Below, piece by piece: positions 736 to 4,030 of a stretch of 5,905 nt of DNA (its first letter is position 1; each line of letters begins with the position of its first letter). The stretch lies in IMG/VR virus record IMGVR_UViG_2690316227_000007; one strand, given 5' to 3'. The notes under the pieces are model-generated. The model ran no database searches and was not told the DNA's origin. It was given only the letters and a program-made list of their open reading frames with translations. The DNA comes from a virus. Taxonomy: Duplodnaviria; Heunggongvirae; Uroviricota; Caudoviricetes. The translations under genes and the position numbers were made by a program.

Positions 736-1725
736 TTACCCCCTGAAGCCCGGCGGAATTTCGGTATCCGGCTCAGAAATATGATTCACACAACGCTGTA
801 CAGACGAACGCCCCAGGCGGATAACCAGTTCATCCCATTTTTCGCGAAGCTTTGACGGACTCATGATATTTTTTACCCAGAATGGATCCCGCTGCACCCG
901 ACCAAACATTTCACAAATTTGTCTGTGAGTTCTGCCATCCAGCATCCGCATTGTGCGCACGTCGTTGGCCCATGCGGTCCAGTTGGGTTCTTTCGGTCGC
1001 GAAATCTCGCCATCATCGCTGGCGGCCTGCTCGTAAAGACTCACGATTCGCCCCCAGATCCACTGCGCACACGCCAAATCTTCCTGGCTGCCCCACTGGC
1101 GTTTTTTCGCACTGAACACAACCGCGTCAGGGTGTCGGGTTAAAAAATCCTGTTCAACCGTCTGCGGGTCCGGTTGCGAAGCTTCCGGACGAGAAGTCTT
1201 TTTATTCTCTGTAGTAATCTCTGTTGTATTCTCTGTAGTAATCTCTGTTGTATTCTCTGTAAGATCATCAGGCCATTTTGACCCGATGACATTGAGTCGT
1301 TTTGAACCAATGGAGCGTTTCATTTTGACCTCTTCCATCGTGTCATTTTGACCTGATGGAGCGGCGCATTTTAAACCGATGGATTCGCTCAATTTGCCAC
1401 CATCTAAAAGCTCGCTCCCGTAGTTGATCGTGTAGAAATTGGTCATATCGCGCTTTGATTTATTGAGCTTTTCACAACGCAAAAGCCCCAGCGTTTTCAG
1501 ACTTGCAAACGCGCGCTTTAACGTTGACTCTGACCAGAATGGGAACTGTTCCAGCCATTGTTCCGTTGTGTTATAAATCCAGCGAACACCATCACATTCC
1601 ATGCCGGAGTTGGTATCTCTCAACCAGTAGTGCAGTTGTTGCAAAACAATGGCTTCGTTTAAGCCAATTTTCATTGCCAGCTGCGTGTTTATAACCAGTG
1701 GGCGTTCAGCAAAAAGAAGACTCAT
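736..1725 (-). CDS. phage replication initiation protein (O-like / replisome-organizer N-terminal domain with DnaT-like C-terminal tail)
   Basis: Long minus-strand ORF ending at TAA 736-738. The N-terminal ~100 aa (MSLLFAERPLVINTQLAMKIGLNEAIVLQQLHYWL...) resemble phage O-like DNA-binding domains. The C-terminus ...VNHISEPDTEIPPGFRG closely matches my recollection of the E. coli DnaT C-terminus (...SEPDSQIPPGFRG). Start is uncertain: ATG at 1723-1725 (weak GGATGG upstream, overlaps the upstream gene stop by 20 nt) is preferred; alternatives are TTG at 1779 (track) or ATG at 1672-1674. Confidence 0.8.
   Translation of the reverse strand: MSLLFAERPLVINTQLAMKIGLNEAIVLQQLHYWLRDTNSGMECDGVRWIYNTTEQWLEQFPFWSESTLKRAFASLKTLGLLRCEKLNKSKRDMTNFYTINYGSELLDGGKLSESIGLKCAAPSGQNDTMEEVKMKRSIGSKRLNVIGSKWPDDLTENTTEITTENTTEITTENKKTSRPEASQPDPQTVEQDFLTRHPDAVVFSAKKRQWGSQEDLACAQWIWGRIVSLYEQAASDDGEISRPKEPNWTAWANDVRTMRMLDGRTHRQICEMFGRVQRDPFWVKNIMSPSKLREKWDELVIRLGRSSVQRCVNHISEPDTEIPPGFRG
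1205..1264. repeat. five tandem 12-bp direct repeats (ttctctgtagta / atctctgttgta alternating) inside the replication gene
   Basis: Read directly: ttctctgtagta atctctgttgta ttctctgtagta atctctgttgta ttctctgtaaga. Encodes the peptide repeat TENTTEITTENTTEITTEN in the interdomain linker of the initiator. Confidence 0.8.
1274..1387. repeat. five ~23-bp iteron-like direct repeats (consensus cATTTTGACC-n-GATGGAgcg); putative origin of replication embedded in the initiator gene
   Basis: Cores cattttgacc at 1274, cgttttgaacc at 1298, cattttgacc at 1321 and 1344, cattttaaacc at 1367, at a regular 23-24 bp spacing, each followed by a GATGGA-like element. By analogy, the lambda origin lies as iterons within the O gene. 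Confidence 0.55.
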
Positions 1726-2441: not shown

Positions 2442-2524
2442 TTAAAACACCTTTATTGTTAGTCATGACTAACAAAATAGATGTTAACAAAAACATAGTC
2501 AATACGATTTAGCATTAGCTAACT
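2442..2524. promoter_or_regulatory. divergent dicC/dicA control region: 20-bp perfect palindrome operator (2456-2475) and candidate dicC promoter
   Basis: TTGTTAGTCATGACTAACAA at 2456-2475 is a perfect 20-bp palindrome. On the minus strand, TTGACT (plus 2497-2502), a 17-nt spacer and TATTTT (plus 2474-2479) form a good sigma70-like promoter whose -10 and predicted start overlap the palindrome. The dicA promoter was not confidently located. Confidence 0.55.
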
Positions 2525-2932
2525 ATGGAAACAAAAAATTTAACTATCGGCGAACGCATTAGGTATCGTCGGAAAAACCTCAAACACACCCAAAGGTCTC
2601 TTGCTAAAGCCCTGAAAATCTCCCATGTGTCTGTATCACAATGGGAACGGGATGATAGTGAACCTACAGGGAAGAACCTTTTTGCCCTCAGCAAAGTATT
2701 GCAATGCTCACCAACATGGATTCTATTTGGCGATGAAGACAAGCAACCAACACCACCTGTTGAGAAGCCAGTTGCCTTATCCCCCAAAGAACTAGAGCTC
2801 CTTGAGCTGTTTAATGCACTGCCAGAATCAGAACAGGATACCCAGCTCGCCGAAATGCGAGCTCGAGTAAAAAACTTCAATAAACTCTTTGAAGAATTAC
2901 TAAAAGCCCGTCAGCGGACAAATAAAAGATAA
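2525..2932 (+). CDS. dicA: DicA, XRE-family HTH repressor (CI-like) of the dicB operon, 135 aa
   Basis: ORF METKNLTIGERIRYRRKNLKHTQRSLAKALKISHVSVSQWER... (135 aa) matches my recollection of E. coli Qin DicA almost exactly. HTH_3-type motif (QRSLAKALKISHVSVSQWE). Divergent from dicC. Confidence 0.93.
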   Translation: METKNLTIGERIRYRRKNLKHTQRSLAKALKISHVSVSQWERDDSEPTGKNLFALSKVLQCSPTWILFGDEDKQPTPPVEKPVALSPKELELLELFNALPESEQDTQLAEMRARVKNFNKLFEELLKARQRTNKR

Positions 2933-3973: not shown

Positions 3974-4030
3974 TTTCTGGTGACGTTTGGCGGTATCAGT
4001 TTTACTCCGTGACTGCTCTGCCGCCCTTTT
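3974..4030 (+). ncRNA. dicF: DicF small regulatory RNA
   Basis: Sequence TTTCTGGTGACGTTTGGCGGTATCAGTTTTACTCCGTGACTGCTCTGCCGCCC followed by TTTTT matches my recollection of E. coli DicF (about 53 nt). Located between ydfC and dicB as in the Qin dicB operon. Ends are uncertain by a few nt. Confidence 0.85.

Follow-up and report, generated by a model that had tools for sequence, protein, structure and literature searches.

The window analysed here is a stretch of 5,905 nucleotides (nt) of Caudoviricetes DNA (IMG/VR record IMGVR_UViG_2690316227_000007). Its minus strand carries a gene for a 329-amino-acid (aa) protein, and within this gene lie two adjoining arrays of short direct repeats, iterons and 12-mers, that together form a putative origin of replication. 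The frame is open up to a TTG at 1779, and the length of 329 aa is counted from the ATG at 1725. We regard the protein as a replication initiator on account of its match to PHROG 391 ('replication initiation O-like', 6e-97) and of its gene, which occupies the position of gene O in lambda. Pfam gave no match to it, and its label in RefSeq is mostly 'hypothetical protein'. The gene and its parts are as follows.

1725-736, minus strand: initiator gene, 329 aa, starting with the ATG at 1725 (RefSeq: 'hypothetical protein')
1411..1725, minus strand: N-terminal winged-helix domain (about aa 1-105), presumed to bind the iterons, from an AlphaFold2 model and its structural matches
1382..1404, minus strand: iteron unit 1 in gene-sense order, GATGGTGGCAAATTGAGCGAATC, degenerate in the window but in register with the other units
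1359..1381, minus strand: iteron unit 2, CATCGGTTTAAAATGCGCCGCTC
1336..1358, minus strand: iteron unit 3, CATCAGGTCAAAATGACACGATG, the best palindrome, its core perfect in every homologue with the same N-terminal domain
1313..1335, minus strand: iteron unit 4, GAAGAGGTCAAAATGAAACGCTC
1290..1312, minus strand: iteron unit 5, CATTGGTTCAAAACGACTCAATG
1266..1288, minus strand: iteron unit 6, CATCGGGTCAAAATGGCCTGATG
1202..1261, minus strand: five 12-mers ACAGAGA(A/T)TA(C/A), or ACAGAGAWTAM, a candidate DNA-unwinding element by tandem-repeat search, GC content, stability and conservation
1166..1205, minus strand: joint of about 40 base pairs (bp) encoding KKTSRPEASQPDP, from local DNA alignments
820..1155, minus strand: C-terminal domain (aa 191-302) homologous to that of lambda O, with 39% identity in tblastn and 35% in BLASTP
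739..801, minus strand: DnaT-like C-terminal tail, VQRCVNHISEPDTEIPPGFRG, matching positions 158-179 of the NCBIfam DnaT model

The original prediction had described five regularly spaced 23-bp repeats, and their cores were found exactly where it had placed them: CATTTTGACC at 1274, 1321 and 1344, CGTTTTGAAC at 1298 and CATTTTAAAC at 1367, with start-to-start distances of 24, 23, 23 and 23. The regular spacing holds, but the number has to be raised to six. Abutting 23-bp units run in gene sense from 1404 to 1266, with one additional base before the last of them, and include the degenerate unit at 1382-1404, whose position is occupied by a good core (GAGGTCAAAGTGACC) in the relatives L008, L009, L011 and L017. 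The 20-mer consensus proposed at that time (cATTTTGACC-n-GATGGAgcg) turned out to be too strict, as only two units fit it within three mismatches. In terms of the protein, the array corresponds to aa 108-154 of 329, between the two domains of the initiator.

The 23-bp periodicity is far above chance. Self-identity at lag 23 reaches 57 of 92 positions from 1297, and the maxima of 200 dinucleotide-preserving shuffles, each the highest score found at any position with a lag of 13-39, had a mean of 40.9 (standard deviation 1.5) and never exceeded 47. Occurrences of the 11-mer core with up to two mismatches are not significant by themselves (6 in the whole window, 2.5 expected); the iteron signal is the clustering and phasing of the cores. 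The core was found nowhere else in 17.8 kb of prophage, which leaves no second iteron cluster there. Sixty units pooled from ten loci gave the consensus CCATCAGGTCAAAATGACCCGAT, in which TCAAA, the G of TGA and the flanking A..T are near-invariant and 9 of 10 position pairs around the central A are complementary. Each unit is a half-palindrome of 21–23 bp centred on AAA, ATCrGGTCA-AAA-TGACnnGAT.

Directly downstream of the iterons in gene sense follows the 12-mer array, an adjoining tandem repeat that the original prediction had not linked to them. Tandem Repeats Finder reports it at 1203-1261 as a perfect repeat (24 bp x 2.5, equal to 12 bp x 4.7, with 100% matches). The block has a GC content of 0.32, the minimum within positions 600-2000, and contains the least stable 40-bp stretch of the gene (free energy -45.5 kcal/mol; gene mean -56.3, standard deviation 4.1). 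The two arrays are parts of one element. The number of 12-mers varies: 78 of 79 close IMG/VR relatives carry three, with 77 of the 79 encoding a protein of 321 aa. The 301-bp origin segment occurs in 1,816 of 5,426 complete E. coli genomes (about one third), almost always on the chromosome, and most of the E. coli matches cover 277 bp of it, that is, one 24-bp unit fewer. The five 12-mers of the window are therefore the result of a local, in-frame duplication of 24 bp.

Several features indicate that selection acts here on the DNA rather than on the peptide. Repeats with a period of 23 bp do not stay in frame: the codon phases at which the six units begin are 0, 2, 1, 0, 2 and 2, and their translations differ (SIGLK, SGQND, EVKMK, SIGSK, VIGSK), so a peptide repeat cannot account for them. 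We also compared identity by codon position in a gap-free alignment between E. coli-type sequences (the window, L002, L004 and L006) and six relatives from Citrobacter, Enterobacter, Raoultella and Izhakiella. The values for codon positions 1, 2 and 3 were:

N-terminal domain: 0.77 / 0.91 / 0.44
Iteron cores: 0.88 / 0.93 / 0.80
Iteron spacers: 0.72 / 0.76 / 0.76
12-mer block: 1.00 / 0.77 / 0.96

The asymmetry between codon positions that marks protein-level selection is lost in the repeats, where nucleotides are conserved evenly instead; in the iteron spacers, positions 1 and 2 are conserved no better than position 3. Since identity at third positions is 0.44 in the N-terminal domain as against 0.80 in the cores and 0.96 in the 12-mers, selection must act on the DNA. 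The near saturation of third positions in the flanking N-terminal coding sequence also means that the region is old, yet its repeats have been held constant.

The comparison of repeat sequence and spacing in homologues that had been proposed as a check of the iterons went in their favour. The scan behind it covered one genome per species and yielded 25 loci. The core (G/A)GTCAAA(A/G)TGA was present at intervals of 23, 23, 23, 23 and 24 bp in 11 of the 11 loci with the same N-terminal domain, six of which (the enterobacterial L008, L009, L011, L012, L015 and L017) have the window-type domain and iterons joined to an unrelated C-terminal half resembling that of SPP1 G38P. The core was not found in loci whose similarity is confined to the C-terminal half (L007, L010, L013/L014, L018, L021). 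An examination of four of these for alternative arrays showed other repeats in the same place: a 23-bp repeat in at least six copies in L007, six copies of the 15-bp GTCAAAATCTGACCC in L010, the palindromic GTGTCACTAnnnnAGTGACA at 23/24 bp in L021, and other repeat arrays in L018.

Relatives of the N-terminal domain with 45–56% identity come from a Bacillus isolate genome, a Bacillus metagenome-assembled genome (MAG), Deferribacterales MAGs and S. aureus phage 96. They too have A-tract palindromes (CTGTTCAAAATGAACAG, CAGTGCAAAATGACCAG, GGACAAAATGrCCCG) every 21–23 bp, followed by two or three ACAGAGA(C/T)TA units, which are sometimes 11 bp apart and therefore lie in different frames. Three further loci, from contigs binned as Bacillota, Veillonella parvula and Collinsella MAGs (L003, L006, L020), carry the E. 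coli prophage gene at 93–100% identity; these contigs are most likely mis-binned and were left out of the cross-phylum argument.

A first IMG/VR scan returned only near-identical relatives, from which variation within the population was read; a second one, whose first sequence was a distant one, provided breadth and gave a wider sample of 36 loci less than 85% identical in the N-terminal domain. In all 36, periodic self-identity at 20–24 bp was stronger in the linker than in two control regions (means of 38.7 versus 26.5 and 27.1, out of 66). The 12-mer motif was found at +330 to +560 nt in 35 of the 36, with a density of 9.3 per kb there and 0.21 per kb elsewhere, and successive copies were spaced by 12 bp in 26 cases and by 11 bp in 10. 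The pairing of N-terminal domain, iterons and 12-mers is constant: it holds irrespective of the C-terminal module, in Enterobacteria as well as in Bacillus and Staphylococcus phages. Three loci from Deferribacterales and Proteobacteria MAGs (L024, L025, L026) encode proteins of about 800 aa in which the N-terminal domain is present twice in tandem, ahead of the repeat array; in L024 this array comprises nine units of 21–22 bp. Two matched stretches were also seen in many top hits of the search against cluster representatives.

Local DNA alignments show where the cassettes are exchanged. Similarity to relatives with a different C-terminus stops at 1166, and similarity to those with a different N-terminus starts at 1205-1248 (L010, L007, L005) or, for L018, only at 1139. 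The joint of about 40 bp at 1166-1205 is common to every combination of N- and C-terminal cassettes (L005, L007, L008, L010, L029) and may either belong to the origin or mark where cassettes recombine. A second downstream motif, GATCCGTCAGATAA, which encodes DPSDK, recurs in relatives with other N-terminal domains (L010, L013, L018, L005). It adjoins ACAGAGATTACT units in L005 and may represent an alternative unwinding-element cassette.

The initiator itself is a chimera of an N-terminal domain whose fold comes closest to that of RepA_N initiators, a lambda-O-like C-terminal domain and a DnaT-like tail. Pfam and NCBIfam scans assigned no domain apart from the tail. The AlphaFold2 model of the N-terminal domain, built from 40 sequences, has a winged-helix layout with a mean pLDDT (predicted local distance difference test) of 83. 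Its best structural matches are N-terminal domains of RepA_N initiators, with small margins over ordinary winged-helix regulators; Foldseek independently placed 4pql, 4ro3, 5kbj and 4pt7 at or near the top. At E ≤ 1e-10, 12,585 representatives of clusters at 50% identity belong to the family of this domain, for which neither Pfam nor NCBIfam has a model. BLASTP similarity to lambda O is restricted to residues 147-302, which align with lambda O residues 135-270 (35% identity over 156 residues, E 2e-27). The original prediction had called the C-terminus DnaT-like. This applies only to the last ~21 residues (…SEPDTEIPPGFRG), a near-copy of the extreme C-terminus of E. coli DnaT with phmmer matches to PDB entries 2ru8, 6aep and 9zbt; the C-terminal domain proper is lambda-O-like. 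In relatives with a different N-terminal domain the protein ends in IPAGFRG.

Compared with E. coli chromosomes, the window is 99.5% identical across 99% of its length. The best-matching record annotates this DNA as part of a lambdoid prophage of DicA/Qin type, namely its region for immunity and replication; the features around the initiator gene are as follows.

2525-2932, plus strand: dicA (annotation of the best-matching record)
2474..2502, minus strand: promoter-like site before dicC/cro, TTGACT-17-TATTTT, from a consensus scan and gene order only
2441-2211, minus strand: dicC/cro (annotation of the best-matching record)
2227-1706, minus strand: YdaT-family, CII-like gene (annotation of the best-matching record)
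695-273, minus strand: DUF977/Ren-like gene, directly after the initiator gene

To the right of dicA follow ydfA, ydfB, ydfC, the DicF RNA, dicB, ydfD and the start of a recE-like exonuclease gene. DicF, a known antisense small RNA, lies at 3975-4026 on the plus strand with ydfC and dicB on either side, the arrangement known from the Qin prophage (Rfam RF00039, 76.7 bits). It is the sole Rfam match in the window, and no known RNA family was found over the repeats. The predicted site at 2474..2502 is likely the early promoter whose transcript crosses the origin. Within 1100-1500 the scan gave no promoter-like site or terminator and no DnaA boxes, and the number of DnaA boxes over the whole window is that expected by chance. 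Two other carriers of the replication module are phage mEp460_ev081, which has been sequenced, and a circular element of 43.7 kb.

Among known origins, that of lambda offers the closest parallel in layout. It lies in the middle of O, whose product binds the iterons (PMC7466680). As in the window, the iterons have an internal dyad around an A-tract, recur about every 20–24 bp in the middle of the initiator gene and are followed by an A+T-rich tract; in lambda these are four copies of ATCCCTCAAAACGAGGGA with spacings of 20, 24 and 23 at nt 349-435 of O. The BLASTP alignment places TENTTEITTENTTEITTENKK opposite lambda's TKDTITKEKRKDY, the translation of its A+T-rich segment, and hence makes the array of the window positionally equivalent to ori-lambda. 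Both systems share the gene order cro, cII-like gene, initiator, Ren-like gene, and the C-terminal domains are homologous (35–39% identity). The Shiga toxin (Stx) phages resemble the window in having six iterons (PMC7466680). The claim that the array follows the lambda arrangement, with iterons inside the initiator gene and an unrelated repeat sequence, agrees with every computational test available. In contrast to lambda, however, the window has an unrelated iteron sequence and N-terminal domain (with no Phage_rep_O match), lacks a P gene in its module, encodes an initiator with a DnaT-like tail, and has as its presumed unwinding block a sequence-conserved 12-mer array rather than simply A+T-rich DNA. 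The origin-recognition cassette, that is, the N-terminal domain with its iterons, belongs to a different family from that of lambda.

The RepA_N plasmid replicons pSK41 and pTZ2162 and the RepA of Vibrio cholerae PLE have a winged-helix N-terminal domain of about 110–120 aa and provide the top structural matches. RepA_N origins consist of semi-palindromic direct repeats converging on a poly-A tract in the centre of the rep gene (PMC7145576, PMC5703833), a description that the mid-gene ATCrGGTCA-AAA-TGACnnGAT units of the window fit. In pSK41, four Rep boxes lie centrally in rep and the segment encoded there is a dispensable linker; the N-terminal domain bends A-tract DNA, and the C-terminal domain is host-specific and swapped according to host (PMC5703833). 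Unlike these replicons, the window belongs to a phage and its initiator has a lambda-O-like C-terminal domain and no PF06970 sequence match.

In SPP1, oriL likewise embeds initiator-bound repeats and an adjoining unwinding element in the initiator gene, gene 38 (G38P), and this region suffices for replication in vitro (PMC5737612). SPP1 differs from the window in encoding its own loader and helicase and in the N-terminal domain of G38P. Both G38P and the Rep of TP901-1, whose in-gene origins have been characterised by experiment, were considered as homologues of our N-terminal domain and rejected, as BLASTP found no similarity. A true homologue (about 46% identity) is the N-terminal domain of ORF015 of S. 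aureus phage 96, annotated as 'DnaD-like helicase loader'. Like the window, phage 96 and related Bacillus and Staphylococcus phage initiators have GGACAAAATGr units at 22–23 bp with ACAGAGACTA downstream, but the C-terminal half in phage 96 differs and genes for a phage helicase loader and a DnaB-like helicase come next. We found no origin mapping for these phages in the literature.

Taken together, we consider it probable (about 80%) that vegetative, theta-type replication of this DicA/Qin-type lambdoid prophage originates at positions 1202-1404, in the linker-coding part of its own initiator gene. Dimers of the N-terminal winged-helix domain would bind the six half-palindromic, A-tract-centred iterons phased at 23 bp. 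The resulting nucleoprotein complex would bend the DNA and, together with supercoiling and transcription from the early promoter, melt the adjacent ACAGAGAWTAM 12-mers. The lambda-O-like C-terminal domain and the DnaT-like tail would then bring in the helicase-loading machinery of the host, and the origin would fire. We infer this recruitment of host proteins from the make-up of the phage module, which encodes neither a loader nor a helicase; P, DnaC and helicase genes are missing from it in the window, in mEp460_ev081 and on the 43.7-kb element. In the available part of a preprimosome study (PMC13377028), the C-terminal domain of DnaT docks on PriA and its linker on PriB; that part assigns no contact to the last 20 DnaT residues. 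An origin inside its initiator gene is already known from lambda, pSK41 and SPP1, and nothing established about phage origins is overturned. New are the particular recognition cassette, the sequence-conserved 12-mer block and the chimeric initiator without a loader.

Five points weigh against this assignment. The module lacks a P-like partner for helicase recruitment. Zero of 40 family members match Pfam RepA_N (PF06970) even at E ≤ 1, and only weak generic winged-helix matches appear; given also the small margins in fold comparison, the resemblance to RepA_N, close as it is, is one of fold and mode of action, not of membership. The integrase is frameshifted in the prophage of the best-matching genome, so this particular copy may be defective. 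In the literature that we searched, neither this origin nor the replication module of mEp460 is described, and there is no mention of phage initiators with a DnaT-like tail. Finally, the N-terminal coding region adjoins the iterons, and their co-inheritance is partly simple linkage. Linkage does not explain, however, why the motif is retained where neighbouring synonymous sites are near saturation, or why the mosaic breakpoints all lie past the array and none separates the domain from its repeats.

It is also conceivable, if improbable, that the repeats bind the initiator for autoregulation, for copy-number control by handcuffing or for exclusion of related phages, and that the true origin lies elsewhere. 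Iterons in plasmids and lambda also mediate control and exclusion phenotypes, cloned lambda origin DNA is inhibitory (PMC3349717), and the computed data do not separate binding from firing. A purely regulatory array, however, leaves unexplained why the least stable, A+T-rich block of the gene adjoins the iterons and is conserved with them across phyla; moreover, the arrangement aligns with the mapped lambda origin, and the 17.8 kb of prophage offer no second cluster.

We consider it very improbable that the repeats are sites for another protein (the CII-like YdaT-family protein, the DUF977/Ren-like protein or a host factor), for example in an internal promoter or regulatory site. Several small DNA-binding proteins are indeed encoded nearby, but the repeats track the N-terminal domain of the initiator into S. 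aureus, Bacillus and Deferribacterales elements with different neighbour genes, and the empty scan for promoters and DnaA boxes within 1100-1500 argues in the same direction. The chances are slimmer again that the conservation stems from recent horizontal transfer or from a module recombination joint and not from a function of the repeats. The mosaic breakpoints just past the array (1166 and 1205-1248) and the 40-bp joint in all cassette combinations would suit such an origin of the pattern; a recent event is hard to reconcile with third positions that are near-saturated in the N-terminal flank (0.44) and not in the repeats, and with a core motif that persists at 45–56% protein identity in other phyla. 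That the DNA repeat is a mere by-product of a repetitive, low-complexity peptide linker, as the recurring strings SIGSK/SGQND and TENTTEITTEN might suggest, is scarcely credible, since the units are read in three frames as different peptides, the 12-mers stand 11 bp apart in 10 cases, codon-position asymmetry is lost and the equivalent linker peptide of pSK41 is dispensable (PMC5703833).

The reading of the locus as an origin can be extended in three directions, a combination that is possible but, as a whole, doubtful. The ACAGAGAyTA 11–12-mers might be not just A+T-rich filler but a sequence-specific element, conserved from Staphylococcus to E. coli phages and read by the initiator during melting in the way that DnaA recognises DnaA-trios and TrfA the 13-mers of oriV. 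In the initiator-only form of the Enterobacteria, the tail that mimics DnaT might plug into the restart primosome of the host (PriA/PriB/DnaT, then DnaB-DnaC) and so replace a phage loader. The N-terminal family might be a very large, unannotated sister of RepA_N that is common in Gram-negative prophages.

If the locus is indeed an origin, its signature (N-terminal domain, then 21–24-bp A-tract palindromes, then ACAGAGAyTA repeats) would permit the annotation of origins in thousands of temperate phages of Gram-negative and Gram-positive hosts, and would predict replication specificity and incompatibility among co-resident prophages. The case shows an origin-recognition cassette recombined with different helicase-recruitment modules, and the initiator-only form with its DnaT-like tail suggests a way, open to testing, for a phage that lacks a loader to recruit the host helicase.

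Some entries for the initiator gene deviate in length. The gene is disrupted in Shigella flexneri SFBU0723 (L016), where the frame from the start of the match has only 95 aa. Many database gene calls (proteins P0002-P0020) stop at 119–195 aa, inside the iteron or 12-mer region; these short calls may result from contig ends at the repeats or from frameshifts.

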